Of a stretch of 15,752 bases of DNA, positions 1-15,752 are shown piece by piece (position 1 is the first letter of the stretch; each line of letters begins with the position of its first letter). A program made the translations under genes and the position numbers. The notes beneath the pieces are model-generated. The model saw only the letters and a program-made list of their open reading frames with translations. It searched no databases and was not told where the DNA came from. The DNA is from an uncultured bacterium. Its GTDB lineage: Bacteria > Myxococcota_A > UBA9042 > PHBI01. The stretch is from positions 1-15,752 of the forward strand of contig CALHXW010000350.1 in assembly GCA_938040325.1 (NCBI GenBank), read 5' to 3'.

Positions 1-3000
1 CGGCGCTGGGCGTCGCAAAGCGAGATGAACTTCTGCAAGAGCTCGGGATGGGTGTGCTGGATGTCGTCGAGATAGAGCATGACGTTGTTGCCCATCTCGA
101 GGGCCAGGTTGATCTTGTCGACCTCTTGGCGCGCTGTGGCGTTGGGAGCCTCTGAGGGGTCGAGCGAGTGCACGCTGTGGCCAAGCGAGGGCCCGTTCAC
201 CTTCATGAAGACCAGCCCCAGGCGGCTCGCGACGTACTCCATGAGCGTGGTCTTGCCGTAGCCTGGTGGCGAGATCAGCAGCAAGAGGCCCATGAGATCG
301 GTCCGCTTGCCTGCCCCGAGCGCGCCCATCTGCTTGGCGAGGTTGTCGCCGATGAGGTGCAAGTAGACGTCGTTGATGAGCTTGTTGCGCACAAACGACG
401 TCAGCACCCGCGGCTTGTACTCGTCGATCCGCAGCGCGTCCTTGGCCGTGTGGACATGCTCGGTCAAGAGCTGTCGGTAGCGCGCGTACGCCGGCACTTC
501 CGTGTCGATATAGGCGCGCACGCGCGGCAGCAGCTCGTCGAGGCGCACCACGAGCTGGCGGTCCACAACGCGCGGGTGCTGCCCAAGCAGGCCTTCGACG
601 CGGGCACTCATCACCGCTTGGCTCACGTGGCGCTCAAGGCGCTCGGCCGTCAAGCACAGCACGGCTGCCTCAAGTCGGTAGTCCGCCCACTCTGAGGCGC
701 GCGCGTCATCGGACGTCGCAATCGCCGCATCGACCCAGGCAAGCGCCAGCAACACCTGCGCGTCGTGGTCGCCGCCCAGCCTCCTCAGGTCGTGCTCGAG
801 GCTGTCCGGATGCAGCTTGAGCACATGGTCGCGCAGCGTCGCGGCCGCGCCGCTCGTGATGAACTGCGGCCGGGCAGCCGTCAGCTCGTGAGCCAGGTAC
901 CGACCGGCCTCCGTCACGTCGCGCACGTCGGTCGGGATGGTCGCCGCTGCAAAGAATGACGTCATCGCCGAGCTGAGCTCCTCGGCGAGCGTGTCGAGGG
1001 CTGGAAGCTCGGAGACCACCTGGAGCTGGCCGAGGCTCAGTGCCCGCGCATGCCACCGGCCCGCCGTGTCCTCGCCGTCGTGGAACGCCCAAAAGAGACA
1101 CGCCAGCGCACGCGCGCTGGGCCCGTAACGCAAGAGCCCCGCGGTCTTGCGCAAGCTCAAGAGACTGCCGACGATCGCCGCGGCATCCGCATCGTGTAGG
1201 CCGCGCTCATAGCCTTCAGCGTAGCGCTCAGCCGCGTAGGCGCGCACCAGCTTCAGCAGGCCATCGCCTTCTTCCAGGACGGCCGCTTCGAGACGCGCGA
1301 CGCTGAGGCCGTCTTGAGACGCTTCGGCAGCGAAGAGCACCCGAGCCGCGAGATACTCGCCGCGGTAGAGCTCGGGCGACTCGGACACCACGTCCCGGCT
1401 CCAGAACCGGCGCGTGCTGAGAAAGTCGGGGTCGTCGATCGCTTGGTAGTAGTCGGTCCCCGTCGCGTGCAGGGCCATCTTGTCCCCACGCGGCACGACG
1501 GTCAGCTCCAGCGCCTGGGTGTTGACGTTGAAGCGGTGCTTTCCGAGCTTGATGACGTCAGTGCCATCTTCGAAGAGCTCAAGCTTGTCGCGTAGGCCCC
1601 GCAGGGCTTCTTGCTGGGCGGCCTTGAGCTTGGCCATCAGCTCGTCGGACTTGACGCTATCGCCAAGCTCCAGCAGCTGCTCTGCGAGCTGGCGAAGCTT
1701 GAGCACCATCGCGTCGCTGGCGAAGTAGCCGTTGAGCTCGTCTTCAGCCTTGAATGCGCGCGCACGACGACCGATGCCGTCGAGGACACGCTGGCCGGCG
1801 GTGGCTAGGTTTTGGGCTCGCCGCTGAAGCGCGTCCAAGAGCGTCTGCTTCTTGGTCGCGAACGCCTCGTAGACCTCCTCGCGCTTGTCGGCGAGGGTCG
1901 CGATGAACTCGTCGAACTCGCTGAAGCGGCTCTCAAGCTCCTCCAGCTGGACCATCATGCGCGAGAGCTGGGTGTCGCAAGCGTCGGGGCTGTCGGCCAT
2001 GGCGATGGCGCTGCCGACGGACTGCCCGAAGAGCCGAAACTGGGCAGCGAACGCGTCGCGGCCTTCGTTGCCGAGCAGGGTCTTGCGCTGGCTCTGATAG
2101 ACCGCTCGGACCCGGTTGATGTGGGAGAACGTCTCGCTGATGCCTTCGAGGATGCGGGTTCGTGCCGTGGCGTCCTCGATGTCGAGGGTCGAGACCACCT
2201 CGGTGAGGATGTTGAGCCCGGTCGTTAGGCCTTCGATCGACTCGCCGTGCGGCTCGATGTCGGCGACCTTCTCCGTCTCCTCAATGACCGCGAGCAGCTC
2301 CTCGGCACGGTCGCGAACCGGCGTCAGCGCATCGTCGCCGAGCAAGAACGTGACGGCGCCTTTGCTGATGGTGTCGAAGGCATCGCTGACTTCCTGCTCG
2401 AGCGCACCGATGCCTTCGAGGTCCACGTAGCGTAGCTCTTTCAACGTGATGAGGTGACCACGCTGGGTCCGCAGCTTCGACAGCGCCTCCATGAAGGGCT
2501 CGATCGCCTCCCACCGCGTGGGGTCGAGCCCCCGCAAGAGCTCTCGCTGAGTCTCGGTGGCAGCCTCAAGCGCTGACGCCGCCTGGGCGCGCATGGCCAG
2601 CACGCGCTCAAACTCGTCGATGATCTTTTCGGCATTGCCACGCAGAGACGCCAGCGTCGCCTTGAGGTCGCCAGCCTCCGCTTCGCCGAGCCAGTAGTAG
2701 CTGTCCTCCATTCGCGTCAGAGCCGCGACCAAGTCCTCGTAGCGCTGACGGCTGGGTTCCTGATTCTCCACGCGCCGGGCAATGGCGACCGCCTCGCTGA
2801 TGCCGCGCACCAGATCGGCATTGCCGATCTTGCCGAGCGTTCCACCCACGCCGGCCGCTTCGGCAGCGAACTCGACCGACATGAACGGCGTCTGCCAGAC
2901 CTGCATCGGGTGCACGCGGGTCGGCTCATCTACATGGCGAAAGACCAGCATTCGGCCATCGTCGAAGACCGAGTAGCCGTCGCAGTGAATCGGATTCTGA

Positions 3001-4169
3001 ACCGCCTGACGGATGAGGTTGTAGGGCAGCAGCGTGAAGTGCCCACCGTCTTGTTGGTAGAAGACGTAGAGCACGTCTTCGCCGTTCGGCGACCGGATCG
3101 CGCGCTTAAAGCTCAGGTCGGTCGTGTCGACATCAAAGACCTTGTACTCGCCGCTCTGCAGGTAGTAGCCGCCAGGAAAGATGACGCCGTGGTCTTCCGG
3201 TAGCGAGACGCACGCTTGGCCAATCGCATCGATACGGACCGCTTGGTGCGCACGCGTGTCGAACACGAGAAAGCGCCAGACGCTCTCGCGGAAGGGCAGG
3301 AGCTTGAGCAGCACGAGGGTTCCGACCTCAGCGTACTCGATCTTGAGGTCATCGAGGGACTGGCGGTCGTCGTCCACATCGGACTCAAAGACCACTCGCC
3401 CCGCTGGGGTGTTGTCCTCAACCTTGAGCCGCAGCTTGCCGCCCAGCGCGCTGACGAAGACCTTGTCGAGCACCGAGACGTAGGGCTCTTTGCCGCTGCG
3501 CTGGTCCTCACGCGTGGTCGAGGTCCAGACGAAGTCGTGACTGGGCGGAAACGTGTAGTCGCGCTCTCCGCGGTTGTCGACGTAGGTGGCCTGGCCGTCG
3601 GGATCGAGGCGCCAGCGCAAGACCTTGATGTCGCTGACCTGATTGCCAACCCGAAACACCGCCAACAGCTGGTCGCCCGCGTCGTTGAGTCGCAGATGGG
3701 CGAGTCGCGCCATCTTGTAGAACTCGACGAGCTCACGGAACTCGCGCTCAAACGCTTCGCCTCCGAAGAGCCGAGGGTTGACCTCGCCCGCAGGCACCGA
3801 TGAGAGGTCAAAGCCTTCATCGGTCTCTTCGAAGCGGTGCAGACTGAAGACTTCGTCGACTTCGGTGCGCTCGCGCAGCTGGACCTGGACGTTGTAGCCG
3901 AAGAGCAAGTGGTCGCCCAAGGCGACAATATCGCGCGGCACACAGTTGTTTTCGGTGCGCACCCGCTCGTTGCCGATCAGCGTCAGCTCGCTGGTGCCGA
4001 ATGCCTGTTGCCGCTCCAGGTTGAGCGCGTCGGCTTTCGCCCGCAGCTCTCCTGCGTCGGCCTCAAGCCTGCGGCGCAAGACCTCGTAGTTGCCGCTGCT
4101 CAGCGCATCGTCGGCGCCGGTTGTTTCTGCCCCGGCGCCGCCCTCGGAGTTGTCGGTCGTGTCAGCCAA
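1..4169 (-). CDS. Giant uncharacterised protein, at least 1389 aa within the window. The N-terminus is at 4169 and the C-terminus runs off the left edge. A AAA+/P-loop ATPase module sits near the C-terminal end; upstream are ~1250 aa of mixed beta-rich and helical/coiled-coil regions. Last gene of the yqiJ-flotillin operon.
   Basis: I reverse-complemented and translated the whole interval by hand in the frame whose codons occupy plus positions 3n..3n+2. There is no in-frame stop from 4169 to 1, and the third codon position is G/C almost throughout. Walker A ...LLLLISPPGYGKTTLMEYV... lies at ~246-290 (rc). Walker B ...GNNVMLYLDDIQHTHPELL... lies at ~50-100 (rc). The first in-frame start is TTG at 4169-4167, two codons after the flotillin TAG (4176-4178), with no ATG/GTG for ~150 codons although coding bias begins immediately. 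It is absent from the supplied ORF track because it lacks ATG and runs off the window. Confidence 0.75.
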   Translation of the reverse strand, partial: MADTTDNSEGGAGAETTGADDALSSGNYEVLRRRLEADAGELRAKADALNLERQQAFGTSELTLIGNERVRTENNCVPRDIVALGDHLLFGYNVQVQLRERTEVDEVFSLHRFEETDEGFDLSSVPAGEVNPRLFGGEAFEREFRELVEFYKMARLAHLRLNDAGDQLLAVFRVGNQVSDIKVLRWRLDPDGQATYVDNRGERDYTFPPSHDFVWTSTTREDQRSGKEPYVSVLDKVFVSALGGKLRLKVEDNTPAGRVVFESDVDDDRQSLDDLKIEYAEVGTLVLLKLLPFRESVWRFLVFDTRAHQAVRIDAIGQACVSLPEDHGVIFPGGYYLQSGEYKVFDVDTTDLSFKRAIRSPNGEDVLYVFYQQDGGHFTLLPYNLIRQAVQNPIHCDGYSVFDDGRMLVFRHVDEPTRVHPMQVWQTPFMSVEFAAEAAGVGGTLGKIGNADLVRGISEAVAIARRVENQEPSRQRYEDLVAALTRMEDSYYWLGEAEAGDLKATLASLRGNAEKIIDEFERVLAMRAQAASALEAATETQRELLRGLDPTRWEAIEPFMEALSKLRTQRGHLITLKELRYVDLEGIGALEQEVSDAFDTISKGAVTFLLGDDALTPVRDRAEELLAVIEETEKVADIEPHGESIEGLTTGLNILTEVVSTLDIEDATARTRILEGISETFSHINRVRAVYQSQRKTLLGNEGRDAFAAQFRLFGQSVGSAIAMADSPDACDTQLSRMMVQLEELESRFSEFDEFIATLADKREEVYEAFATKKQTLLDALQRRAQNLATAGQRVLDGIGRRARAFKAEDELNGYFASDAMVLKLRQLAEQLLELGDSVKSDELMAKLKAAQQEALRGLRDKLELFEDGTDVIKLGKHRFNVNTQALELTVVPRGDKMALHATGTDYYQAIDDPDFLSTRRFWSRDVVSESPELYRGEYLAARVLFAAEASQDGLSVARLEAAVLEEGDGLLKLVRAYAAERYAEGYERGLHDADAAAIVGSLLSLRKTAGLLRYGPSARALACLFWAFHDGEDTAGRWHARALSLGQLQVVSELPALDTLAEELSSAMTSFFAAATIPTDVRDVTEAGRYLAHELTAARPQFITSGAAATLRDHVLKLHPDSLEHDLRRLGGDHDAQVLLALAWVDAAIATSDDARASEWADYRLEAAVLCLTAERLERHVSQAVMSARVEGLLGQHPRVVDRQLVVRLDELLPRVRAYIDTEVPAYARYRQLLTEHVHTAKDALRIDEYKPRVLTSFVRNKLINDVYLHLIGDNLAKQMGALGAGKRTDLMGLLLLISPPGYGKTTLMEYVASRLGLVFMKVNGPSLGHSVHSLDPSEAPNATARQEVDKINLALEMGNNVMLYLDDIQHTHPELLQKFISLCDAQR

Positions 4170-4175
4170 GGCCTG

Positions 4176-6338
4176 CTACCCGAGCTTGAAGCTGTCGAGA
4201 CCAAGCTTCTTGGCATGGGCCGCAAGCTCCGCCAGCTTCGTCTTCGTGGCATCGTCGCCGCCGGTCGCAAGCTTTGCCAACACGGCAGCAATCGACAGGT
4301 TCTGAAGCTCCGCTGCGCCGAGCGCCGGCCGCGAGAGCACCTGCTTGAGGTCGGCGGGGAAGTTGGCTTCACCGCTGAGGTACTCAGACCCGAGCGTCTG
4401 AAGGGTCTCCGAGTTCTCAACCGTTGCGTCGATGGAGCGCCCCATCGACACGGCGCCGACCATCTTGTCGAAGAAGTCGCCGTCGCCGCCGACGATCTGA
4501 ATGTTGGCGCTCTCGAACGCCGCCTTCATCGCCTCGGCTTGAGCCTCCGCAATGTGCCGCTGGTTGCGGATGTGCTCGAGCTTCACGTCCTTTTCGACCT
4601 CAAGCTTGATGCGGAACTCTTCGTGCTCGCGACCGACGCCATCGAGCGCCTTCATTGCGTTCGCCTTCTCCGCGAGACCCGCGGCTTCGGCCGTAAGTTT
4701 CTCGCGGATGGCCTCGGCCTCAGCGTGGCCCTTCTTCTCGATCGCGCCGGCGTGGGCGAGCTCGACGTTGACCTTGGCGAGCCCGATTCCCTCGTCGCCC
4801 TTCGCGGCCGCCAGCTTCTGCTCGGCGATGACCGCTGCTTCCGCCAAGCCCACCTTCTCGGCGGCCTCGGCTTCTGCCTTGGTGACCGTGACTTGCGCCA
4901 GGCCCTTCTCGCGAATGACGTTGGCCTCGGCGTGACCGACCTTCTGGGTCGCGGCTGCGTCCGCTTCTTTCACTTTCACCGCTGCCAGCCCGGTTGCTGC
5001 CGCCGCCGCCTGCGTGCCTTCAGCGCGTCGGATCTCGGCCGCTGCAGCCTTGTCCGCCACCGACAGCTCGGCTTCCGCCAGCGTCAGCCGCTCTTTGGCC
5101 TTGAACTTCGCCGCCTCCTGCTGTGCCTCAGCGGCCTTCAGGTCACGGACCAGCCCCTCCTGCGCATCAGCCTCAGCGCCGATGATCTTGACGTCAGCGA
5201 GACGCTTGGCCTCAGCGTTGGCCACGAGGTCTTTGATCTTCTCTTCCTGCTCGGCGACCTCGCGGTCGACGGCAACGCGCTGGCTGACAACGTCGGCGAT
5301 GGCCTTCCGCTCAACCTCCAGCTGCTTCTCTTTGTCGATGCGCAAAAGCTCCACCTCGCGCTCGCGACCGATGGCCTCAAGCTGCGTGTCCTTGGCGACC
5401 CGCTCCGCCTCGATGCCAACGACGCGCTCGCGGTTCTTCTGGGCGACCTCGACCTGCCGTTGACGGGCCTCGTCCTGAACCGCCACTTCTTCTTCAGCCG
5501 CAATCTTTGCAAGCGCCGCACGCTTCGCCTCGGCGGCCTCGACCGCTTCGGTCTCGGCCTTCTCGCGCGCGACCATCACGGCGATCTCACGCTGCTGCTT
5601 GGCGCGGGCGTCCGCTTCTTGGCGGTCGAGCTCCATCAAGGCTTCCTCGGCCGCGACGTTCTCCTTCTTGATGGCCTTACGCTCGGTCTGCTTGAGCTCG
5701 TTGGTCATCACGTTCTGTTCGGTCGTCAGCGCTGTGATCTTTCGAATGCCCTGCGCATCGAGGATGTTCTTGGGGTCCATGTGCTCGAGGGACGTCTGCT
5801 CGAGGTAGTCGATGGCCGCTTCCTCAAGAATGTAGCCGTTGAGATTGCCCATCACCTCAATGATCTCGTCCTTCCACTTGTGACGCTCTTGATAAAGCTG
5901 CTCGAAGTCCATGCGCTTGCCGACGGTCTTGAGCGCCTCTGAGAAGCGGGCAAGAAAGAGCGTCTCGAGCGTGGCCTGGTCTGACGCGCGGCGGACGCCG
6001 ATGGTCTGGGCAACTCGCAGGACCGACTCGGACACCGGGTTGACCCGCACGTAAAACGACACCTTGATGTCGGCGCGGATGTTGTCGGCGCAGATCAAGC
6101 CGTCCTTGCCGTGCCGCTCAAGCTCGATGGTCTTGAGCGCAATGTCCATGACCTCAGCGCGGTGCACGATCGGCAGAACGACCGCCCCGGTGAAGTAGAC
6201 GTCAGGCTCGTTCTTCATGCGGTTGACGATGAGCGCCTGGCCCTGGTCGACCTTGCGGTAGAAGCGAGCAACCATGATGAGGACGCCGAGCAGCACAATG
6301 GCGACGGCAGCTAGGACGATGACCCAGACGGGAGGCAT
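4176..6338 (-). CDS. Flotillin-family (SPFH/band-7) membrane-microdomain protein, YqiK/FloT-like, 720 aa.
   Basis: The ORF runs ATG 6338 to TAG 4176. An AGGAGA Shine-Dalgarno lies 5 nt upstream (rc of 6344-6349). It has an N-terminal TM helix (MPPVWVIVLAAVAIVLLGVLIMVARF), an SPFH core (VDQGQALIVNRMKNEPDVYFTGAVVLPIVHRAEVMDIALKTIELE...IRADIKVSFYVRVN), then a ~350-aa E/A/K/R-rich coiled coil and a flotillin-type C-terminal region. Codon bias is strong. Confidence 0.9.
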   Translation of the reverse strand: MPPVWVIVLAAVAIVLLGVLIMVARFYRKVDQGQALIVNRMKNEPDVYFTGAVVLPIVHRAEVMDIALKTIELERHGKDGLICADNIRADIKVSFYVRVNPVSESVLRVAQTIGVRRASDQATLETLFLARFSEALKTVGKRMDFEQLYQERHKWKDEIIEVMGNLNGYILEEAAIDYLEQTSLEHMDPKNILDAQGIRKITALTTEQNVMTNELKQTERKAIKKENVAAEEALMELDRQEADARAKQQREIAVMVAREKAETEAVEAAEAKRAALAKIAAEEEVAVQDEARQRQVEVAQKNRERVVGIEAERVAKDTQLEAIGREREVELLRIDKEKQLEVERKAIADVVSQRVAVDREVAEQEEKIKDLVANAEAKRLADVKIIGAEADAQEGLVRDLKAAEAQQEAAKFKAKERLTLAEAELSVADKAAAAEIRRAEGTQAAAAATGLAAVKVKEADAAATQKVGHAEANVIREKGLAQVTVTKAEAEAAEKVGLAEAAVIAEQKLAAAKGDEGIGLAKVNVELAHAGAIEKKGHAEAEAIREKLTAEAAGLAEKANAMKALDGVGREHEEFRIKLEVEKDVKLEHIRNQRHIAEAQAEAMKAAFESANIQIVGGDGDFFDKMVGAVSMGRSIDATVENSETLQTLGSEYLSGEANFPADLKQVLSRPALGAAELQNLSIAAVLAKLATGGDDATKTKLAELAAHAKKLGLDSFKLG

Positions 6339-6366
6339 AGAGTTCTCCTATTGATTGGCGCAAGAG

Positions 6367-6380
6367 CGCGTTCGAACGCG
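6367..6380. promoter_or_regulatory. Perfect 14-bp palindrome CGCGTTCGAACGCG ~30 bp upstream of the flotillin RBS, in the 281-bp yqiJ-flotillin spacer. Candidate operator or protein-binding site.
   Basis: Read directly from the sequence, and it equals its own reverse complement. The same spacer holds a 10-bp palindrome GAGAATTCTC (6508-6517) and an inverted repeat CGCATC-gtt-GATGCG (6535-6549). Confidence 0.3.
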
Positions 6381-6619
6381 GTGCGCGACTTCTGACCGGC
6401 AAGCGTTGGCTAGTGGTTGACGTGTGGTGGCCTCGAACAGGGCAACCGTGTTGGCTGTTCGATGAGATGGGCTTAGCCGGCTTGGGTCGGAGAGGCAAGC
6501 GGTGCCTGAGAATTCTCGCCTCGGCCACGTCGCCCGCATCGTTGATGCGAGTGGGCTTCGCACCGCGCGAAAACGACCCGTGGGCACGATGCGATCTTGG
6601 GGCTGGCGACGCTGAGCAC

Positions 6620-7378
6620 TCAGGCGTCGTGACCGATCATCAGCTCGTCTGCCGCCTGGACCATGAAGGTCTGCGCGTCGGCGTCGTAGTCGATGATGAC
6701 GGCTTTGTCGCCGCGACCGAGGTGCGCGGCGTCGTCGGCTCGGATGTCGACCAGCAGCTCGTTGGAGCCAACGATGCAGCGACCTTGACCAAAGCGCGCG
6801 TCGACCCGCCCGGTCGTCAGCTCCACGACCTGACCGATCAGGTCGCGCTGCTGGCGTCCGGGGTGCTCGGCAAAGACCGGCGCCAGCGGTCGGATCGCCA
6901 GCGATGTGCCAAGGAGACCGCCTATACCTGCGATCCCGAGGGTGGTGATCTGGGAGATTCCGTCGGGAAGCACAGGGGCCAGCGCGTCGAGCGTGAAGTA
7001 GCTGATGACCCAGCCGATCAGCGAGAACGCGCTGAAGGCAATGGTGACTGGGACACTGCGCAGCTTCAGCGCGCTGAGCAACCCCGTCCCGGTGTCGAGC
7101 GCACCTTCCATACCCTCCGCGCCTGCCTCAAGAGCGCCGTCGGCACCGGCTTCGAGCGCACCCTCGAGCGCACCGTCCGCAGCTCCATCGAGGGCCCCGT
7201 CGAGCGCGCCGTCGAGCGCGCCATCGGCGGCACCCTCGAGTGCGCCATCGGCGCCTCCCAGCGCATCGATGTCGACCGCGCCGACCAAAAAGACCAGCCA
7301 GTAGAGCAGCGAGATCGTCAGAAAGACCGTAAAGATCCCGGTGGGCATTGCGAATATCGCATCGAGAAAGATGTCCAT
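6620..7378 (-). CDS. YqiJ/NfeD-like inner-membrane protein (DUF1449-type). N-terminal TM, acidic (DGAL)n repeat, two further TM helices, C-terminal OB-fold beta-barrel. First gene of the flotillin operon.
   Basis: The stop is TGA at 6620-6622 (rc). The ATG at 7378 gives MDIFLDAIFAMPTGIFTVFLTISLLYWLVFLVGAV. The track's longer form starts at a TTG at 7432, and another in-frame ATG lies at 7348. The C-terminal segment LIGQVVELTTGRVDARFGQGRCIVGSNELLVDIRADDAAHLGRGDKAVIIDYDADAQTFMV has the NfeD-type short beta-strand OB-fold pattern. The arrangement matches the classic E. coli yqiJ-yqiK and B. subtilis nfeD-floT pairing (established knowledge). Confidence 0.75.
   Translation of the reverse strand: MDIFLDAIFAMPTGIFTVFLTISLLYWLVFLVGAVDIDALGGADGALEGAADGALDGALDGALDGAADGALEGALEAGADGALEAGAEGMEGALDTGTGLLSALKLRSVPVTIAFSAFSLIGWVISYFTLDALAPVLPDGISQITTLGIAGIGGLLGTSLAIRPLAPVFAEHPGRQQRDLIGQVVELTTGRVDARFGQGRCIVGSNELLVDIRADDAAHLGRGDKAVIIDYDADAQTFMVQAADELMIGHDA
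7095..7262 (-). repeat. In-frame tandem ~15-nt repeat (GAGCGCGCCGTCGAG-like) inside the yqiJ-like gene, encoding an acidic (D/E-G-A-L)n low-complexity tract.
   Basis: The direct nucleotide repeats cgagcgcaccctcgag / cgagcgcgccgtcgag / cgagcgcgccatcggc are visible in the sequence. The translated tract is GGADGALEGAADGALDGALDGALDGAADGALEGALEAGADGALEAGAEGMEGALD. Confidence 0.8.
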
Positions 7379-7509
7379 TGGCCCGTCATAACACGAGCGC
7401 TGGACACGCGCAGTCGGCGCGCTGCCTCCCAAACGACCTTGACGGCTGCGAGTGAGATGGGTCGACTACCGCCGACAGCATCCCCACAACGCGACCAGCG
7501 AGGCGGCTC

Positions 7510-7851
7510 ATGTTCGAGCAAGAGAAAGCCCTAGCGAAGCGGATCCTCGCTGGCCTCGAAGACGGACGACTCGATGCCGCAGGGACGTTTCGCTACGTCG
7601 ACGAGGCCGATCCCGCCCTCATCCATCTTCTCTTTGGGTGGCTGCGCGCGTGGTACCCGCCGGGGCATGGGGCATCGGATGCTGTGTTGGGTCGACTCGG
7701 GGACCTCTGCACCCGCTACCCCAAGGCCGCGCGCCTCGCGAAAGAAGGCGCGACAGACCCGATCGTCGAGTGGTTCCTGGACGAGCACAGCTACCGCGAC
7801 CTCCGATCGGGCGAGTTCATCGATCTGGTGGTCGAAAAGCTCGAAGGCTGA
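7510..7851 (+). CDS. Hypothetical 113-aa cytoplasmic protein (W/L-rich, no TM or signal), transcribed divergently from the yqiJ-flotillin operon.
   Basis: The ORF runs ATG 7510 to TGA 7849-7851. A GAGG Shine-Dalgarno lies 6 nt upstream. GC3 bias is good (ctc, gac, gcc, cgc, ctg...). I recognise no family. Confidence 0.55.
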   Translation: MFEQEKALAKRILAGLEDGRLDAAGTFRYVDEADPALIHLLFGWLRAWYPPGHGASDAVLGRLGDLCTRYPKAARLAKEGATDPIVEWFLDEHSYRDLRSGEFIDLVVEKLEG

Positions 7852-7859
7852 CGGCACGG

Positions 7860-8894
7860 CTACTTTCGCCGCTCTCCAGTGCGCACTGCGCCGGCGTGCT
7901 CAGGTTGCCCCATGAGCTCATAGATCGCTGCGAGGCGGCTGCGCGCTGCGTGCCGACAGGCGGCGGTCTTGCAGCTCCGCGCGACAACGGTGAGCGCCTC
8001 TGCCACGGTCGGCAGCTTCGCTGCGAAGGTCCCGAGGTCACGCCGGCTCTCTGTCGCTAGCGGGGACTCGGACGCGTTGGCGTCGTCGAGCTCCCTCAGC
8101 AACGACAGCAGCTCGGTCGTGGCCGACTGGATGTGACCGGCGTTGTAGTGACACCACGCGAGCTTGTAGCGGGCGTAGCGCGAGAGCGCTGTGTCTGGGC
8201 CGGCGACGGCCTGCTGGTACGCCGCGGTTGCTGCCGACAGGCGCGCCGCGTCAAACTCAAGGTCGGCGAGCTGGAGCGCGGCGGCCTGTTGGTCTTGTCC
8301 TGTCGGACCGGCCGCGACCCGCTGCAAGGTGGTCCGCGATGTTGCACGTTCACCGAGACGAAGCTGAAGCTGGGCGTAGAGCAGGTCACGCCGAGCGTCG
8401 AGCGGGTCTGTCGTTGCTGTCGTCGCATCGGGCCAGTCCGCGAGGAGACGGAGCGCGATGCGCGCGAGGCGGCCTCGGTCTACGCGCTGGGTCTCCGGTC
8501 GGTCGACGACATCGAGCAGCTGCTCGACGGCGCTGATCAGCGACGCACGACGATCATCCTGGGCTCGCGACAGGCGCTGCTTCGGCACCGGTGTGGCCAG
8601 GACAGTCCCTGCTGGCGCCAGGAGCTCACCGCCGATGACGACGTCATCGAAGTTGTAGAACTTGGTCGTCGTCCGGGCCTTAGGGGTCGCCGTGCTGCCG
8701 GACGCTGCTGGCGGCGAGGCAAAGGTTGCGGTCGGCGCGAGAACCAGGGCCGAGAGCACTGCGACGAGAGCGCCGAGGCGGGCTGGCCGTTTGTGTCCGG
8801 ATTCCGGATCGACGAGCCGCGAAGGAATGCGCGGCAAGCGCCGAGCGCGAGGGGTGGGTGGCTTAGGTTTGTGCTCTTTTAGCGTCTTGCTCAT
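7860..8894 (-). CDS. Secreted or membrane-anchored TPR-like repeat protein, 344 aa.
   Basis: The ORF runs ATG 8894 to TAG 7860. The basic Pro-rich N-terminus (KPKPPTPRARRLPRIPSRL) is followed by a hydrophobic signal/TM segment (LGALVAVLSALVLAPTATFASP). There is a conserved-looking KFYNFDDVVIGGELLAP motif. The C-terminal half is helical and TPR-like (YARYKLAWCHYNAGHIQSATTELLSLL). The first 30 codons use poorer codons, so an in-frame TTG further downstream (LPRIPSRLV...) is an alternative start. Confidence 0.7.
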   Translation of the reverse strand: MSKTLKEHKPKPPTPRARRLPRIPSRLVDPESGHKRPARLGALVAVLSALVLAPTATFASPPAASGSTATPKARTTTKFYNFDDVVIGGELLAPAGTVLATPVPKQRLSRAQDDRRASLISAVEQLLDVVDRPETQRVDRGRLARIALRLLADWPDATTATTDPLDARRDLLYAQLQLRLGERATSRTTLQRVAAGPTGQDQQAAALQLADLEFDAARLSAATAAYQQAVAGPDTALSRYARYKLAWCHYNAGHIQSATTELLSLLRELDDANASESPLATESRRDLGTFAAKLPTVAEALTVVARSCKTAACRHAARSRLAAIYELMGQPEHAGAVRTGERRK

Positions 8895-9288: not shown

Positions 9289-10047
9289 CTAGACGACGTC
9301 GGCTTTGAACTGCTCGCCCTTGAGAGCGCAGGCGAGCACGTGGCCCGCGGTTAGAAGCGGGCCGCCGAGGGCCAAGAGCTTGTTTTCTTTCGGCGTCGTC
9401 TTCGTCGGGATGATGAAGAAGCGGTCGGCCCAGGACTGCAGCTGCGGGACGTTGTCGTAGACGCTGTAGCTGTAGAAGAGGCCGTCCCCCTCAGAGATCG
9501 CGTAGCCTTTGCCGCGCGTCTTGATCCGGTTGGCGAGGGGCCACAGGCCTGCGGCATGCAGGCCTAGCTTGACCAATCGACCCGCCACGCGGCCCTGGCC
9601 GAAGCGGTTGCCGTCGCTGATGAAGACCGCCTGCCGAGCCACACGACACATCTCGGCGATGACGTCTCCGGGGCGCTCGACGTGGTGTAGAACGCCGGTG
9701 ATGACCGCCATGTCGACGCTGTCGGTCTCAAAAGGCAGGGCGTAGCCGCTGCCGACCTTGAGATGGTCGGGCGACAGGCCCTTGGCGTGACCCATGGCGG
9801 CGAGCTCTGCCACGGGCTCGATGCCGTAGACGTCGGCGTCGGGCAGGTCCTCGCATAGACGCTTCATCGTGCGACCGGTGCCAGCTCCAACATCGAGGGC
9901 CGAGGTGAAGCCGTACTGGCGAGCAAACGCCAAGATCGTGCCGTAGCTGTGATCGTGGCCGCCTTCGTGCGCCATGTGCATGTCGTCGTACTGGGCGGCC
10001 GTCTTGGCGTAGTACTCGCGCTGGATCTCTTCAGGCGACAGCGGCAT
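9289..10047 (-). CDS. Class I SAM-dependent methyltransferase, 252 aa.
   Basis: An ATG at 10047 is preceded by an AGGAG Shine-Dalgarno at 7-nt spacing (rc of 10055-10059). The track's longer 276-aa form starts further upstream at 10119. Motif I is LDVGAGTGRTMKRL, the post-I acidic motif is DVYGIEP, and motif II/III is VDMAVITGVLHHVERP. The stop is at 9289. Confidence 0.85.
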   Translation of the reverse strand: MPLSPEEIQREYYAKTAAQYDDMHMAHEGGHDHSYGTILAFARQYGFTSALDVGAGTGRTMKRLCEDLPDADVYGIEPVAELAAMGHAKGLSPDHLKVGSGYALPFETDSVDMAVITGVLHHVERPGDVIAEMCRVARQAVFISDGNRFGQGRVAGRLVKLGLHAAGLWPLANRIKTRGKGYAISEGDGLFYSYSVYDNVPQLQSWADRFFIIPTKTTPKENKLLALGGPLLTAGHVLACALKGEQFKADVV

Positions 10048-10326
10048 GCGACGGCTCCTTTCGACACGATGCGATTGGCGACAGCCGAGCCAACCACCTT
10101 CGTGCGTTCCTGTCACCACATGAGTCCATTTCGCTCGCAGGTCCTCCGCGCAGGACAGCGGCCGCGACAGCGATGTCGAGGCCCTGGACCCTGGTGTGCG
10201 CAGGATCGGCGCTCGATTTGCTCAGTCTTTACATCGATGCGCGTCCGGTCTGCGTCTACTGTACACGCGACATGCCGACCTCGGATGACGCGTGGTCAAC
10301 GTCCCTTCGTTCCCTTGGAGAAGCAC

Positions 10327-10992
10327 ATGTCCACGACCTCAAGACGCACGTTCCTACGCCACATCGCCATGACGACCGCCGGGGTCATCGTTGCTCCGCA
10401 CGCTCTTGGGTGCGCAAAGGGCGGCGCCAACGGAACGCCGGCGCTCGCCCCCGCAGCGCCCCCTCCGACGCCGCAGCAGTGCGTCCCGACAAGCCCCGAT
10501 CTGCGCGGACCCTACTACCTGCCTGGCGCCCGCCAGCTCTCGCGCGGTGGCAAGCTCGCGCAGCTTGCTGGGCGACCGGTCGTGGTGAGCGGCGCCGTCC
10601 GCAACTCGCTCTGCTCCCCCGTCCATGGCGCCACCATCGAAGTCTGGCAGGCCGACGCCGACGGGCACTACCACGACGACCTGCTGCGGGCGACGCTGGC
10701 CCTCGGCCAAACCGATACCTACAGCTTCCGCACGATCGTCCCCGGCAACTACCGTGAGCCTGGCGGCTGGCGGCCGGCACACATCCACTTCCGGGTTCAG
10801 GCACCCAACCACCCAGCGCTTGAGACCCAGATGTACTTCGCCGGTGACCCGTACCTCGCCGACAAGGACAGCTGCCAGGTGTGCGACTCACACTCGCCAG
10901 ACCGCCACATCCCGATGACGCGCGGCGATGATGGGGTCGAGCACGTGCAGTTCGACATCACGCTTCGCGCCATCACCTTCGCGGCCCCTTGA
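10327..10992 (+). CDS. Tat-exported intradiol ring-cleavage dioxygenase-family protein, 221 aa.
   Basis: An ATG at 10327 has a GGAG Shine-Dalgarno 6 nt upstream. A twin-arginine signal is present (MSTTSRRTFLRHIAMTTAGVIVAPHALGCA). The intradiol-dioxygenase hallmarks are GPYYLPGA, IEVWQADADGHY and GGWRPAHIHFRV (the H-x-H iron-ligand pair). The 347-aa track ORF starting at 9949 is an upstream extension with no RBS. Confidence 0.8.
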   Translation: MSTTSRRTFLRHIAMTTAGVIVAPHALGCAKGGANGTPALAPAAPPPTPQQCVPTSPDLRGPYYLPGARQLSRGGKLAQLAGRPVVVSGAVRNSLCSPVHGATIEVWQADADGHYHDDLLRATLALGQTDTYSFRTIVPGNYREPGGWRPAHIHFRVQAPNHPALETQMYFAGDPYLADKDSCQVCDSHSPDRHIPMTRGDDGVEHVQFDITLRAITFAAP

Positions 10993-11263: not shown

Positions 11264-13285
11264 ATGAGCTTTGGCAAGCTACAGCGTTTGCTCGACGGAC
11301 CGCACACGGCCGAGTCGCTTGGCGCCGAGCGCTTAGGACGCCTGCGCGCGCTGCAGGTAGCGTCATGCTGCTTGGTGCTGGCAGCAGCGCTTTACCTGGT
11401 GCTCTTCATCTCCATGTCTGAGTGGGTCGGCGTTGCCGCTGCCTCCGTGAGTATCCTCGCCACGCCGCTCATCATCTGGCTGGCACGGTCGTCGCGCCTG
11501 ACGGTCGCCGCCCACCTCATGGTCGCGTGCGTCATGGGGTCGGTGAGCGTGGCAGTCGCTGCCGGTGGTGGACTCCAGCACCCGGTGGTCGCCTGGATGG
11601 TCATGATTCCGATCGCCGCAAGCCTCGTGCTCGGCAGCACGGGAGCACTCCAGTGGACGGTTCTGACGACTCTGGTCATCGCCAGCTTCTGGCTCTACGA
11701 GGCGTTGGGCTACACGTTCACGGTCTCGCCGCAGATGGAAGGCGACGGGGTGGTGCTGCTGGAGTGGCTCGTGCTGATGACGTGCATCGGTGCCGCTCTC
11801 TGGGCCCATGGCTTCGCGTCGCGAGCCATGCGCGACAACCTGGCTGACGCCAACACCGCACTCCGTACCGAGATCATTGAGCGGACCGACGCCGAGCACC
11901 GCGCTGTCCGCGCGGCGGCAGCACGTACGACCTTCGTTGCAACGATGAGCCATGAGATCCGCACGCCTCTCAACGGCGTCCTTGGCGTGACCGAGCTGTT
12001 GCTGGACACGCCGCTCGACCCCGAGCAACGCGAGCTCGCTGAGACGGCGCGCCGCTCGAGCTCACTGCTGCACGCGCTGCTCGACGATGTGCTCGACTTC
12101 TCGAAGATCGACGCCGGGGCCTTGGAGCTTGAGCGCGTGCCGCTTGACCTCCGTGCGCTCTGCGAGGACGTGGTGCGCATGTGGCGTACCCCGGTCGAGG
12201 AGCGCTCGCTCGCGTTTGTGTTTGCCCCGACGAAAGATGCGCCCCGCTGGGTGCTGGCCGACCCGACCCGACTGCGGCAGGTCTTGGGCAACCTCATCAA
12301 CAATGCGATGAAGTTCACCGAGACAGGCTACGTCAAGGTCATCCTCGACAGCGAGGGTGAGGACGCCATCATCGCCGTCCAGGACACTGGAATCGGCATT
12401 GACCCAGCGGCGCTTGCCGGCATCTTTGCGCCCTTCAAGCAGGCCGACAACAGCACGACGCGCAGCTATGGAGGGAGCGGACTCGGCCTGGCGATCTGCA
12501 ACGAGCTGGCAGCCGCGATGGGGGGGGACCTGAAGGTATCGTCGACGGTGGGCGTTGGCAGTCTCTTCACGCTTCGTGCACCGCTGCCGCGGACAGACGC
12601 GCCGCCCATTCCGCTCCCCGTGATCGCACCCGACGAGAAGCTCCTCGCCGGTCAGCGCGTGCTCGTCGCGGAGGACAACCCGGTCAACGTCATGGTCACC
12701 ACGCGCATGTTGACGCGGATCGGGGTCGAGGTCGTGGTCGCAGCCAACGGCGCAGAGTGCATCGACGCGTGGCAGGAGCACGCCCCGACGCTCATCCTCA
12801 TGGACTGCTCGATGCCGATCTGTGACGGCTACCAGGCCACTGCAGCGATTCGCGATCTCGGCGGCAAGCTGCCAATCATCGCGCTAACGGCCAACTCTGG
12901 GGCCGACGAGAGGCGCCGCTGTCTCGAGGCCGGCATGGACGGTCACTTGACCAAGCCGGTCCAAGCGACTCAGCTCGAGGCCGTGCTGAGCCACTGGCTG
13001 CTGGAGCGAGAGAGCGGCAACAACACGGACGTCGCTGTGGCGCTCAAGCTCGGCGACCACTGGGGCGCCTCGAAGAGCGGCCTCTTGCACATCGATGTCG
13101 CGACAGGTGCGGCAAGCCTCGCCGAAGAGTCGCAGCTCCGGCGTGCCCGCGACCGTCACACCACAGAGTCACGGGAGCTTCGGCGAAAGGCCAAGACCCA
13201 GCCCTTGCCACGCGGCATGGTCGCGCGGGCGACAGCAACGACCCTGCCGGTCCCGCTCGATAAGGTCGTCGGTGGCGACGGCTGA
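11264..13285 (+). CDS. Hybrid sensor histidine kinase. It has a six-TM N-terminal sensor, coiled-coil linker, HisKA, HATPase_c, C-terminal receiver domain and a ~90-aa tail.
   Basis: Six hydrophobic helices lie in aa 20-190. The H-box is [23 protein letters not shown]1 and G2 boxes are present ([38 protein letters not shown]). The REC domain is [19 protein letters not shown]...[21 protein letters not shown]...IIALTANS...KPV. No response-regulator gene is adjacent. Confidence 0.9.
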
Positions 13286-13513: not shown

Positions 13514-13981
13514 TTATGAGGTCTTGAGTAGGTAGGCGTCCAACAGACCGTTCGTCGTTGCCTGGATCTTGTTGCGCATAAACGAGCTCCAACCCAGGAG
13601 CAGGCCAGGAACGCCGAGCGCTTGTTTGGACCACTGCCAGAGGTCGAACGTGTCTTGGTGGCGGACGATCAGCCCGTCGATGACATCGAATGTGGCGCTG
13701 ACGTTGTTGGTCACCGGGCGCTTCTTCGGCCCGTAGGTGTAGTTGGCGACCCATGTCGCCGAGCCACCCTCGTCGTTGCCCTCGACGTTGTCGAAGGTCA
13801 CTTTCAGGCCGCTGCCTCGGCTCATCAGCATCCGCCACATGGCCTTCGCTCGATCGCCCTCAAGTGTACCGAACGCCGGATCGCTGAAGATCACGTCGTC
13901 GCTGTAGCACGCGATCATCCCTTCGGCGTCAGCGTTGGCGAAGGCGGTATAGAACGAGGTGATGAGATCACAGGTTTCCAT
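13514..13981 (-). CDS. NTF2-like / SnoaL-like (ketosteroid-isomerase fold) small protein, 155 aa.
   Basis: An ATG at 13981 has a GGAGG Shine-Dalgarno at 7-nt spacing (rc of 13989-13993). The track start at 14005 adds 8 aa with no RBS. The N-terminal signature is ITSFYTAFANADAEGMIACYSDDVIFSDPAFGTLEGDRAKAMWRML, typical of the NTF2-like superfamily. GC3 bias is good. Confidence 0.75.
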   Translation of the reverse strand: METCDLITSFYTAFANADAEGMIACYSDDVIFSDPAFGTLEGDRAKAMWRMLMSRGSGLKVTFDNVEGNDEGGSATWVANYTYGPKKRPVTNNVSATFDVIDGLIVRHQDTFDLWQWSKQALGVPGLLLGWSSFMRNKIQATTNGLLDAYLLKTS

Positions 13982-14087
13982 CGGCGAGCCTCCGGCGCAG
14001 GTCATGCAGCACGTCAGTGAGTGAGCGCCGATGGTGCCTGGGTGGTCGAGGCGTGTCTATGGCCGGCACGAGGCGTCCCTGCGACAA

Positions 14088-14117
14088 CCAAAAACGGCGC
14101 CGCAGGTGCGACGCCGT
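14088..14117 (-). terminator. Rho-independent terminator for the Cys-rich repeat gene. The hairpin ACGGCG-uCGCA-cc-UGCG-gCGCCGU is followed by UUUUU on the minus-strand transcript.
   Basis: The plus strand reads aaaaacggcgccgcaggtgcgacgccgtt at 14090-14118. It has 6-bp outer and 4-bp inner complementary arms with one U.G wobble. The A-run on plus corresponds to a U-run 3' of the stem on the minus transcript. It lies ~55 nt downstream of the stop at 14172. Confidence 0.6.
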
Positions 14118-14171
14118 TGGTGTGTCAGATCTCGGCGGGCGGCTCGGGTGCGCACACGCCGGGGCAGGCGA

Positions 14172-15506
14172 TCAGCGCGTTGGCACCAGCGCCGGAGCGG
14201 GCTCGCAGACCCCACCGCAGGCGATGAGCGCGTTCGTGCCGAAGCCGCAGCCGTTGTCGAAGTTGCAGAGCTCGCCATCGCCGCAGTCGTTGTCGCTGTA
14301 GCAAATCTCGGCCGGTGGCTCGGGCGCGCAGACGCCGGGGCACAGGATGAGCGCGTTGGCGCCGCCGCCGCCGCACCCCTGCTCGAAGCTGCAGTACTCG
14401 CCGTCGGCACAGGCATCATCGGTGTGACAGAAGGTCGGAGCCGGGGGCTCGCACACGCCGGCACAGGCGATCAGCGCGTTGGCGCCAAAGCCGCAGCCGT
14501 TGTCGAAGTTGCAGACGTCGCCGTTGTCGCAGTCGGCGTCGCTAAAGCAGCTGTCGTCGACGACCGGCTCGCAGACGCCGCCGCAAGCGATCAGCGCGTT
14601 GGTGCCGAATCCACAACCGTCGAGGTTGCAGTACTCGCCGGCGCCGCACTCGCTGTCGCTGTAGCAGAGGTCGTCGACGGGCGGGTCAACGCACTCGCCG
14701 GGGCAGGCCATCTTCGCGTTGATGGGGCCGCCGCCGCAGCCGTCGAAGCTGCAGATCTGGCCGCCATCGCAGTCGGTGTCCACGTAGCAGCTGTCGTCGA
14801 TCGGGTCCGGCTCGCACACGCCGCCGCAAGCGATCAGCGCGTTGGCGCCGAAGCCACAGCCATCGAGGTTGCAGAACTCCTCGGCGCCGCAGTCGGCGTC
14901 GCTGTAGCAGGTGTCGTCGACGACCGGCTCGCAGACGCCCGGGCACGCGAGCAGGGCGTTGGGGGTACCAAAGCCGCAGCCATCGAAGTTGCAGAACTCG
15001 CCGGCGCCGCACTCGGCGTCGCCGTAGCAGCCCTCGTCGATCGGCTCATCGACGCACTGTCCGGGGCAGGCGATCTTGGCGTTGAAGCCGCCGCCGCCGC
15101 AGCCGTTGTCGAAGCTGCAGACTTGACCCTTGCCGCAGTCGCCGTCGCTGTAGCAGCCGCTGTTGTCGGGCACGCACTCGCCGTAGCAAACGGCCGGGCA
15201 GACCGTGCCGGCGCCGCAGCCAGGAGGCGGGTTGCACACGCCGTCGCTGACGCTGCAGTGCGATCCCTCGCCACACTCGTTGTCGCTGTAGCAGCCTGTG
15301 GGCTCAGGCTCATCGCACTGGAACTCACAGCCGCCGTCCACGCAGGCCCAAGCGCCTTCGCAGTCGGGTGCCTCGAGGCCGTCGCACTCGCTCGCCGCGC
15401 TGCACTCGTCTGGCTCGGTGTCTCCGCCGCCGCAGTTGTTGTCACCGGGCGCCATGAGCAGCAGTGCTGCTGCCCCGAGAAAGAGCGCGTTCTTAAGTGT
15501 GTTCAT
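14172..15506 (-). CDS. Secreted cysteine-rich repeat protein, 444 aa. It has a Sec signal peptide, an ~50-aa N-terminal Cys-rich cap and nine tandem ~40-aa six-cysteine repeats.
   Basis: An ATG at 15506 has an AAGGA Shine-Dalgarno 8 nt upstream. The signal peptide is MNTLKNALFLGAAALLLMAPG. The repeats include CYSDADCGAEEFCNLDGCGFGANALIACGGVCEPDPIDDS, CYSDSECGAGEYCNLDGCGFGTNALIACGGVCEPVVDDS and CFSDADCDNGDVCNFDNGCGFGANALIACAGVCEPPAPTF. GC3 bias is extreme. The stop is TGA at 14172-14174. The track's 526-aa version, starting at 15752, has no signal-peptide logic and no RBS. Confidence 0.85.
   Translation of the reverse strand: MNTLKNALFLGAAALLLMAPGDNNCGGGDTEPDECSAASECDGLEAPDCEGAWACVDGGCEFQCDEPEPTGCYSDNECGEGSHCSVSDGVCNPPPGCGAGTVCPAVCYGECVPDNSGCYSDGDCGKGQVCSFDNGCGGGGFNAKIACPGQCVDEPIDEGCYGDAECGAGEFCNFDGCGFGTPNALLACPGVCEPVVDDTCYSDADCGAEEFCNLDGCGFGANALIACGGVCEPDPIDDSCYVDTDCDGGQICSFDGCGGGPINAKMACPGECVDPPVDDLCYSDSECGAGEYCNLDGCGFGTNALIACGGVCEPVVDDSCFSDADCDNGDVCNFDNGCGFGANALIACAGVCEPPAPTFCHTDDACADGEYCSFEQGCGGGGANALILCPGVCAPEPPAEICYSDNDCGDGELCNFDNGCGFGTNALIACGGVCEPAPALVPTR
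14175..15280 (-). repeat. Nine ~117-123-nt tandem coding repeats inside the Cys-rich gene, highly similar at the DNA level.
   Basis: Strings such as gcgatcagcgcgttggcgccgaagccgcagccgttgtcgaagttgcag recur with few substitutions at ~14465, ~14590 and ~14830. Confidence 0.8.
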
Positions 15507-15752
15507 GTGACCTATCCTTCGTGACGGAGCTGGGCCTGTGGAGGCGGGGCTAAACCATACAAGCGATCGGTTGTCTATCATCAGGCACCGGGCGCCCGAC
15601 GTCGGCCAGTCCCCTCTGGTCCCAAAACAAGCGCTCTTTCCGGCTGCGCCTTCCGCGATGCACTCGCCAGCAGCGTCGGTCCGCTCGCTCCGCTCACCCG
15701 AACTCGACGATGCTCGCAGGGCCTTCATTCGGCCGACGCCGCTGGCAAGCAC

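Follow-up and report, generated by a model that had tools for sequence, protein, structure and literature searches.

The locus and its three genes

The window examined here is a 15,752 nt stretch of DNA (positions 1–15,752 of contig CALHXW010000350.1, GenBank assembly GCA_938040325.1) from an uncultured bacterium assigned to the Myxococcota_A (UBA9042; PHBI01). At its left end lies a cassette of three genes, all on the minus strand, which encode a YqiJ-like membrane protein, a flotillin-family SPFH protein and the first part of a giant AAA+ ATPase (Table 1). A preliminary description of this DNA, made from the sequence alone, had presented the cassette as an undescribed membrane-microdomain system. 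The linkage of the genes and the membrane role that it proposed were supported, but its claims about novelty and about the protein family were wrong.

The coordinates of the cassette, its open reading frames (ORFs) and its coding signal were confirmed. The G+C content of the window is high (approximately 0.62–0.69), and the G+C content by codon position in the three genes is as in real genes, with values of 0.78–0.84 at the third position (GC3) and 0.37–0.48 at the second (GC2). The longest ORF for the YqiJ-like protein (7432..6620) would encode 270 aa. As the Met of the sequence 'MDIFLD' is the start in every one of the 19 aligned homologues, the start codon is likely to be at 7378, giving a protein of 252 aa. 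The SPFH gene is separated from it by a spacer that is not conserved with that of the closest relative (L082; loci recovered in this work carry L numbers), where it is 201 nt long. A search of the spacer in the window for regulatory elements revealed no Rfam match, consensus promoter or consensus terminator.

The SPFH gene ends with a TAG stop codon at 4178–4176, followed by a spacer of 6 nt (CAGGCC) and then by a TTG codon at 4169, which aligns with Met1 of full-length homologues of the ATPase. From this TTG the giant ORF is free of stop codons for 1389 codons, up to the edge of the window. Homologues cover 98–100 % of it, so nothing points to the frameshift or broken ORF that the preliminary description had named as a refutation. 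The 6 nt spacer it noted is correct and is common to the window and L082. The translational coupling that it read from this distance is better put as a possibility, as the distance from the SPFH gene to the ATPase gene in 75 loci extended from an overlap (−8 or −4 nt) to over 100 nt.

Table 1. Features of the 15,752 nt window (nucleotide positions in the window; aa, residues of the encoded protein)
Feature	Position	Strand	Details
YqiJ-like inner-membrane protein gene	6620..7378	−	252 aa; translation, start by alignment of homologues
Period-12 DNA tandem repeat	7152..7254	−	Found with TRF; inside the YqiJ-like gene
Spacer between YqiJ-like and SPFH genes, non-coding	6339..6619	−	281 nt; ends in the SPFH ribosome-binding site AGGAGA
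YqiK/flotillin-family SPFH protein gene	4176..6338	−	720 aa; ATG start after AGGAGA
Giant DUF3686-family AAA+ ATPase gene, 5′ part	3..4169	−	1389 of ~1750–1950 codons; gene cut by the contig end, ~400 codons missing
Predicted long helix of the ATPase	3999–4091 (aa 27–57)	−	AlphaFold model
Predicted beta-propeller domain	2892..3983 (aa 63–426)	−	AlphaFold, pLDDT ~90; inside Pfam DUF3686 (aa 41–492)
Central region of the ATPase	645..2876	−	Predicted helical bundles, small beta domain, second helical domain
Start of the AAA+ module, predicted MoxR class	3..317	−	From ~aa 1285; rest of the module beyond the window
Walker A, GYGKTT	246–263 (aa 1303–1308)	−	
Walker B, LYLDD	63–77 (aa 1365–1369)	−	
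Methyltransferase	9289–10119	−	
Dioxygenase	9949–10992	+	Weak TAT-signal match
Hybrid histidine kinase	11264–13285	+	
SnoaL-like protein	13514–14005	−	
526 aa ORF ending at the last base of the window	14172–15752	−	GC3 0.85; weak Dickkopf_N-like cysteine-rich match, 27.6 bits

The YqiJ-like and SPFH proteins

Neither of the two smaller proteins was matched in direct scans of Pfam, NCBIfam and PADLOC, and their homology had therefore to be sought via YqiJ and YqiK of Escherichia coli and via orthologues. Hydropathy analysis of the first protein revealed approximately three hydrophobic segments (aa ~10–42, 108–130 and 144–162), and the C-terminus is a beta-rich domain of about 70 aa. When a profile built from 20 homologues was aligned with E. 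coli YqiJ using hhalign, a probability of 89.5 % was obtained (E = 2e-6, 123 columns). An orthologue in Hymenobacter (phmmer E = 5e-9) is annotated as a 'DUF1449 family protein', as is a homologue in the Sandaracinaceae, and DUF1449 is the YqiJ family. E. coli YqiJ itself matches both of the relevant Pfam models, YqiJ_N (PF21001) and YqiJ_OB (PF07290), but neither was detected in the window protein or in six orthologues, which had no Pfam match at all. On these alignments the protein is treated here as YqiJ-like (DUF1449/short NfeD-like), in agreement with the preliminary description, though it lies outside the Pfam definition of the family. Some of its homologues carry the NCBI name 'glycine zipper family protein'.

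The period-12 repeat in this gene encodes an acidic Gly/Ala tract with a periodicity of four residues (GADGALEGAADGALDG...), located between the first and second hydrophobic segments. The length of this tract varies widely among the homologues, and the orthologues from Gammaproteobacteria and actinobacteria lack it.

The second protein includes an N-terminal hydrophobic membrane anchor (aa 1–30), an SPFH domain and a long coiled-coil region rich in Ala and Glu. It shares 30 % identity over 441 aa with E. coli YqiK (BLASTP, E = 9e-38), and the family profile aligned with YqiK in hhalign with 99.9 % probability; a further BLASTP segment at the C-terminus was not significant (E = 4). Pfam Band_7 did not match the window protein, though the orthologues in two other loci (L022 and L066) scored above the gathering threshold. 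Pfam Flot (PF15975), which matches E. coli YqiK at 6e-41, was found neither in the window protein nor in four orthologues, and a PDB sequence search with the protein and its profile retrieved no relative. In their source records the homologues go by the names YqiK or SPFH domain-containing protein. By homology the protein is a member of the YqiK/flotillin family of SPFH proteins, and its earlier identification as a flotillin stands.

Conservation of the linkage

To determine the distribution of the cassette, one genome per species was scanned with conserved peptides from the ATPase, and at least 560 loci were confirmed. The best 80 of these were used for all neighbourhood counts, their six-frame ORFs being searched with the window proteins. 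According to the record titles, the 80 loci come from the Myxococcota or 'deltaproteobacterial' genomes (22), Actinomycetota (21), Gammaproteobacteria (30), Planctomycetota (3) and metagenome-assembled genomes of unclear affiliation (4). A homologue of the SPFH protein is encoded upstream of the ATPase and on the same strand in 78 of them, and the remaining two include no upstream DNA, so that the association holds in all 78 informative cases. A YqiJ-like gene precedes the SPFH gene in 74 of the 80. When the neighbouring ORFs were clustered, just the YqiJ-like, SPFH and ATPase genes were conserved throughout. The reverse search, starting from SPFH homologues, found the ATPase immediately downstream in a Stigmatella genome and in a 9.3 Mb genome. 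Annotated replicons added the Bacteroidota (Hymenobacter) and the Deinococcota. In all, no fewer than six phyla and at least 560 species genomes contain the trio. The linkage of the SPFH and ATPase genes is real and far beyond chance. The preliminary description had left open whether the trio occurs outside the Myxococcales, and had made its proposal depend on the third gene lying beside flotillin genes in other genomes; both questions are answered by these loci.

Two loci depart from the usual arrangement. In the 9.3 Mb genome (L085, GCA_942493285.1) the YqiJ-like gene, the product of which is 46 % identical to that in the window, is inverted (8172–8888, minus strand) and divergent from the SPFH–ATPase pair (8992–16885, plus strand), an instance of adjacency without co-transcription. 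In Myxococcales bacterium 68-20 (L018, 3572–9935) the SPFH and ATPase genes are kept apart by an insertion of three envelope-type genes, the products of which are an OmpA/thrombospondin-repeat protein, a DUF11 protein and a LamG-like protein, and a YqiJ-like gene was not detected.

Family and architecture of the giant ATPase

The preliminary description had not recognized the third protein as any named family. However, three Pfam models match it above their cut-offs, namely DUF3686 (PF12458; 625.7 bits, E = 5e-188), DUF7902 (PF25472; 86.7 bits, E = 1e-24) and AAA (PF00004; 31.8 bits). More than 5368 homologues were found, with full-length members of 1750–1950 aa. The propeller region alone, searched against 1.84 billion representatives, matched 742 clusters (50 % identity), in which complete members are 1600–2000 aa. 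By these matches the protein is placed in a named but uncharacterized family with the composition DUF3686, DUF7902 and AAA. No solved relative was found in a PDB sequence search, where matches were confined to the level of the Walker A motif; a literature search for DUF3686 and PF12458 found nothing, and the ATPase is mentioned neither in a 2009 survey of SPFH proteins nor in a 2026 paper on the flotillins of Pseudomonas aeruginosa (PMC13086221).

The structure of aa 1–1200 was predicted with AlphaFold from an alignment of 71 sequences (mean predicted local distance difference test score, pLDDT, 86). After a long N-terminal helix, the model includes an all-beta domain, for which the best Foldseek matches were WD40 and prolyl-oligopeptidase propellers. 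This is followed by long helical bundles (aa 432–865) that contain DUF7902 (aa 613–696), a small beta domain (aa 872–910) and a second helical domain (aa 936–1175). The beta-rich region followed by a helical one in the preliminary description agrees with this model, and the two motifs GYGKTT and LYLDD are at the C-terminal position it gave. Hydropathy analysis of full-length homologues detected no transmembrane segments.

As the AAA+ module is cut by the end of the contig, the C-terminal 573 residues of a full-length homologue (P0002) were modelled (pLDDT 80.5). The predicted AAA+ core was closest in Foldseek to NorQ and CbbQ, with target-normalized TM-scores of 0.54–0.60, ahead of RuvB and Lon, and a beta-hairpin is predicted between Walker B and sensor 1. 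The Pfam AAA_5 model passed its cut-off of 22 bits with P0002 (31.6 bits), while a second homologue scored 21.7 bits and the truncated window protein 16.3 bits. The preliminary description had excluded MoxR on the basis of motifs, but the model and the AAA_5 match assign the module to the MoxR class, closest to NorQ/CbbQ. Taken together, the two models give a coiled coil, a beta-propeller, helical bundles of roughly 700 aa and this module. The motifs PPGYGKTT, DD(I/V)Q and PDML(A/S)NRAD are retained in all 76 orthologues from the fetched loci (L001–L080), indicating that the ATPase site is under strong constraint.

Pfam describes DUF3686 as 'ATPase involved in DNA repair', and homologues carry the NCBI name 'DNA repair ATPase'. 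If these names were taken at face value, the protein would act in DNA repair and its position next to a flotillin gene would be incidental or regulatory. RuvB is indeed among the structural neighbours, and weak RuvB-like sequence matches were seen (E of approximately 1e-3 to 1e-4), but these are limited to the P-loop region and are far below family cut-offs, the NCBIfam RuvB models scoring 18–21 bits against cut-offs of 282–299. Neither the Pfam scans nor the models revealed a nucleic-acid-binding or nuclease domain, and the gene is always linked to genes for two membrane proteins, often together with PspA, rhomboid or TelA genes (see below). As the literature search returned nothing, no experimental basis was found for the name, and a role in DNA repair is very improbable.

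Previously described neighbourhoods and accessory genes

Operons that combine genes for CesT/Tir and PspA proteins with genes for band-7/flotillin, YqiJ/YuaF and AAA+ ATPase proteins were reported by Ravi et al. (mSystems 2024, PMC11237479; bioRxiv 2020). Their example from Dokdonia includes, in this order, a CesT_Tir protein, a YqiJ-YuaF transmembrane protein, a protein with Band-7, coiled-coil and Flotillin regions, and one with a beta-propeller, a coiled coil and an AAA-ATPase; in some Proteobacteria a phospholipase D (PLD) hydrolase joins the operon. Abbreviated operons (flotillin, YqiJ/YuaF and sometimes the ATPase) were found to be more widespread and may work with PspA encoded elsewhere. 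A chaperone-like role resembling that of the endosomal sorting machinery ESCRT was proposed for the PspA-linked AAA+, band-7 and CesT proteins (PMC11237479). The cassette therefore cannot be called undescribed, as it had been in the preliminary description. The window holds the abbreviated, PspA-less form of the operon, here without the PLD, rhomboid and TelA extras as well, and is another copy of a known, computationally described module, to which it adds nothing further.

The extended forms were present among the loci examined here. In 17 gammaproteobacterial loci, genes for a DUF2170/YjfI (CesT-like) protein and for PspA/IM30 (up to 168 bits) precede the trio, and in subsets of loci other genes lie downstream of it: a rhomboid protease is encoded there in 9 loci, a PLD-superfamily protein in 11 and TelA in 9. 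The order in Hymenobacter is a Tir-like chaperone, PspA, DUF1449, SPFH and ATPase. On the Hymenobacter plasmid NZ_CP010056.1 (L087) a gene for a LexA-family regulator (2577–3362, minus strand) lies divergently just upstream of this operon, which could hint at stress-linked regulation or be a coincidence. In pQBR103, a megaplasmid of Pseudomonas fluorescens SBW25 (L086, NC_009444.1, 84458–101867), a complete set resembling yjfI-yjfJ-(rhomboid)-yjfK-yjfL-yjfM-yjfC is located directly before the trio. This plasmid joins two classes of PspA-CesT operon that are given separately by Ravi et al., and a gene of the MvaT/MvaU family follows the trio on the opposite strand. The accessory genes (PspA, rhomboid, PLD, TelA) point to membrane stress.

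The trio could also be read as part of a defence against phage, an abortive-infection function having been suggested in the preliminary description. Here, the scaffold would sense perturbation of the envelope by a phage and the ATPase would trigger damage to the membrane or to nucleic acids, the effector being the PLD-like hydrolase at loci that have one. PspA and TelA have historically been linked to phage and toxic-anion stress, the downstream PLD-superfamily protein is similar to the PLD domains found in DrmC and MkoB/C, and the trio is found on some megaplasmids. Its distribution in Pseudomonas is patchy, and horizontal transfer has been inferred (PMC13086221). However, searches of PADLOC-DB 2.0 at E = 1e-3 gave no match for the SPFH protein, the YqiJ-like protein or the full-length ATPase, and the truncated ATPase gave just P-loop-level matches near that threshold. 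Generic PLD-domain models were matched only by the PLD protein that accompanies the trio at other loci, the gene for which is missing from most loci as well as from the window. No copy of the trio was found in 50,697 phage records, and only 13 of 72,556 plasmid records contained it, most of them megaplasmids or chromids. The flanking genes seen at the other loci are housekeeping or envelope genes and not defence islands. We consider an anti-phage function improbable.

The bac operon of Pseudomonas aeruginosa

An experimentally studied relative appears to be the 'biofilm-associated cluster' bacABCDEF of P. aeruginosa (PA3732–PA3727/PA14_16140–16200; Wallart et al. 2024, PMC10948618). BacA is a DUF2170 protein and BacB is PspA; the six genes form a single transcript by reverse transcription PCR, a sigma-54 site has been proposed, and BacB to BacF increase together by 6–13 fold in a bacA mutant (PMC10948618). 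BacC is a short NfeD protein and BacD is the SPFH protein PaFlo3 (PMC13086221). Matches to the sigma-54 promoter proposed for bacA were at chance level in the window, with none upstream of the operon.

The identity of BacE was examined by mapping the published junction primers onto related Pseudomonas loci. The forward primer for bacD/E matches the SPFH gene of L027 exactly at its 3′ end and has 1–2 mismatches in four other Pseudomonas loci, while the reverse primer has 14 contiguous bases in common with the region of L060 that encodes an invariant TENNC motif near the N-terminus of the ATPase. In L041 and L026 the ATPase gene is matched at its 3′ end, with 4–5 mismatches, by the forward primer for bacE/F. 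Because the primers map to the SPFH 3′ end and to both ends of the ATPase gene, BacE is very probably the orthologue of the ATPase. In the supplementary table the bacD/E reverse primer appears with 21 nt, where the other junction primers shown are 20-mers (PMC10948618). With one T fewer it would encode, in frame, TENNCIA, the invariant N-terminal motif of the ATPase, and the additional base is possibly a typographical error.

A possible role in membrane stress

The analysis established a conserved association, in which the genes for a membrane-anchored flotillin-type scaffold protein and its partner of the YqiJ type accompany the gene for a soluble AAA+ protein of the MoxR class with conserved catalytic motifs. 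A membrane-related role, as envisaged in the preliminary description, is the best reading of the linked membrane genes and of the neighbours associated with membrane stress. In its specific form, this would be a membrane-stress module with an ATP-driven remodeller of the flotillin scaffold or of PspA-type polymers, a proposal to which we give roughly even chances.

SPFH-NfeD pairs form large cages or rings on membranes. The YqiJ-like protein, with three membrane segments and an OB-like domain, and the SPFH protein are proposed to assemble, as other such pairs do, into an oligomeric scaffold at the inner membrane, on its cytoplasmic side. Rings of the MoxR class are remodellers of specific partner complexes, and beta-propellers are typical protein-binding modules. 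The MoxR-class module at the C-terminus of the approximately 1800 aa soluble protein would assemble into a ring, and the ATPase would dock on the scaffold via its N-terminal modules. Hydrolysis of ATP would then assemble, disassemble or remodel the flotillin scaffold. The ATPase could also act on PspA/ESCRT-III-like polymers, which are encoded in the operon in other lineages and would here come from elsewhere in the genome. In either case the remodelling would be part of a membrane-stress response. The physical association of ATPase and scaffold, the formation of a ring and the remodelling activity are all inferred.

Several observations weigh against this proposal. The window includes no PspA gene, and a gene for a CesT/Tir-like (DUF2170) protein was likewise not found in it. 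The Walker B motif is DD(I/V)Q, and not the usual DE, in all 76 orthologues, and ATP hydrolysis may accordingly be slow, regulated or regulatory. A von Willebrand factor A (VWA) protein, the usual partner of MoxR proteins, was absent from the conserved neighbours in the 80 loci. The literature search found no paper in which the ATPase had been characterized. Finally, deletion of PaFlo3, the SPFH orthologue in P. aeruginosa, reduced biofilm by only approximately 20 % and left growth, motility, oxidative stress and virulence unchanged (PMC13086221).

The ATPase might alternatively serve in quality control of membrane proteins. The SPFH/YqiJ cage would corral damaged or unassembled membrane proteins and the AAA+ ring would extract or unfold them, passing these clients to a protease encoded elsewhere or to the rhomboid of the operon, with the scaffold itself not remodelled. 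That SPFH cages can enclose an AAA+ machine is established from HflKC-FtsH and from prohibitin with the m-AAA protease (cited in PMC2636767), and the propeller could bind clients. A gene for a rhomboid intramembrane protease follows the ATPase or is part of the operon in nine loci and in pQBR103, but these are a minority. The ATPase has neither a protease domain nor a membrane anchor, and Lon and Clp were weaker structural matches than NorQ/CbbQ. In addition, MoxR-class ATPases as a family are remodellers of specific partners and not general unfoldases. We consider a quality-control function unlikely.

Within the remodelling proposal, a more specific version can be formulated by analogy. The DUF3686 ATPase may be a bacterial counterpart of Vps4, a flotillin-docked motor of the MoxR class that disassembles or reshapes PspA/ESCRT-III-like polymers and/or flotillin cages during membrane repair, with PspA supplied from elsewhere in the genome in this bacterium. 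We regard this version as tentative and somewhat doubtful. According to a 2025 review, an ATPase of the Vps4 type appears to be missing from bacteria (PMC7619361).

The largest component of this widespread trio has a misleading database name. It is hard-wired to the flotillin/YqiJ pair and often to PspA, which makes it a candidate energy-dependent regulator of both bacterial flotillin and PspA/ESCRT-III assemblies, and we know of no energy-consuming partner of bacterial flotillins.

Other genes in the window

A possible divergent gene of 113 aa (7510–7851, plus strand) was found upstream of the cassette, with a GC3 of 0.75, a natural-looking sequence and no Pfam match; the statistics of an antisense ORF (7531–7857, minus strand) are comparable. 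Only approximately 130 nt (7379–7509) would be left for the promoter region of the operon if the plus-strand gene is real. A gene for a tetratricopeptide repeat-like protein (7860..8894) was considered as a member of the operon and rejected, as it is not conserved and the possible divergent ORF lies in between. The other genes, which encode a methyltransferase, a dioxygenase, a hybrid histidine kinase and a SnoaL-like protein (Table 1), look unrelated to the cassette. At the right end of the window, the minus-strand ORF is more gene-like than the plus-strand ORF that overlaps it (14031–15524).

Comparison with known systems

The giant ATPase resembles Vps4 with ESCRT-III in being an AAA+ protein associated with the ESCRT-III superfamily, PspA genes accompanying it in the extended operons. 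However, Vps4 belongs to a different AAA+ clade, the giant ATPase has no MIT domain and the window has no PspA gene, so the analogy is functional only. HflKC-FtsH and the prohibitin/m-AAA protease are similar in the functional coupling of a scaffold of SPFH proteins with an AAA+ machine at a membrane. FtsH is a membrane-anchored AAA protein of the classical clade with a protease domain and is not encoded beside hflKC, whereas the giant ATPase is soluble, MoxR-like and free of a protease domain, and is encoded immediately downstream of the SPFH gene. The likeness to the MoxR-class proteins NorQ, CbbQ and RavA consists of the AAA_5 match of the full-length homologue and the best structural matches, which are NorQ and CbbQ. 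These proteins are approximately 300 aa and work with a VWA-domain partner, whereas the giant ATPase, at approximately 1800 aa, has its own propeller and helical domains.

In yqiJ-yqiK of E. coli and yuaF-floT of Bacillus subtilis, as in the window, the gene for a membrane protein of the short NfeD/YqiJ type precedes that for an SPFH protein of the flotillin family. In E. coli there is no third gene, and the sib/ibs loci follow yqiK; the window SPFH protein is also longer than YqiK (720 versus 553 aa). The P. aeruginosa bac operon is closer, as bacC, bacD and, by the primer evidence, probably bacE match the three genes of the window. It differs in beginning with the DUF2170 (BacA) and PspA (BacB) genes, in having a sixth gene and in its proposed sigma-54 promoter, no such motif being found upstream in the window. 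The neighbourhood of Ravi et al. was described in one paragraph from comparative genomics, with no AAA+ class, Pfam family or experiment (PMC11237479). It includes the CesT/Tir-PspA pair, and in some cases the PLD gene, none of which is in the window, but the remaining genes encode the same three architectures in the same order as those found here.

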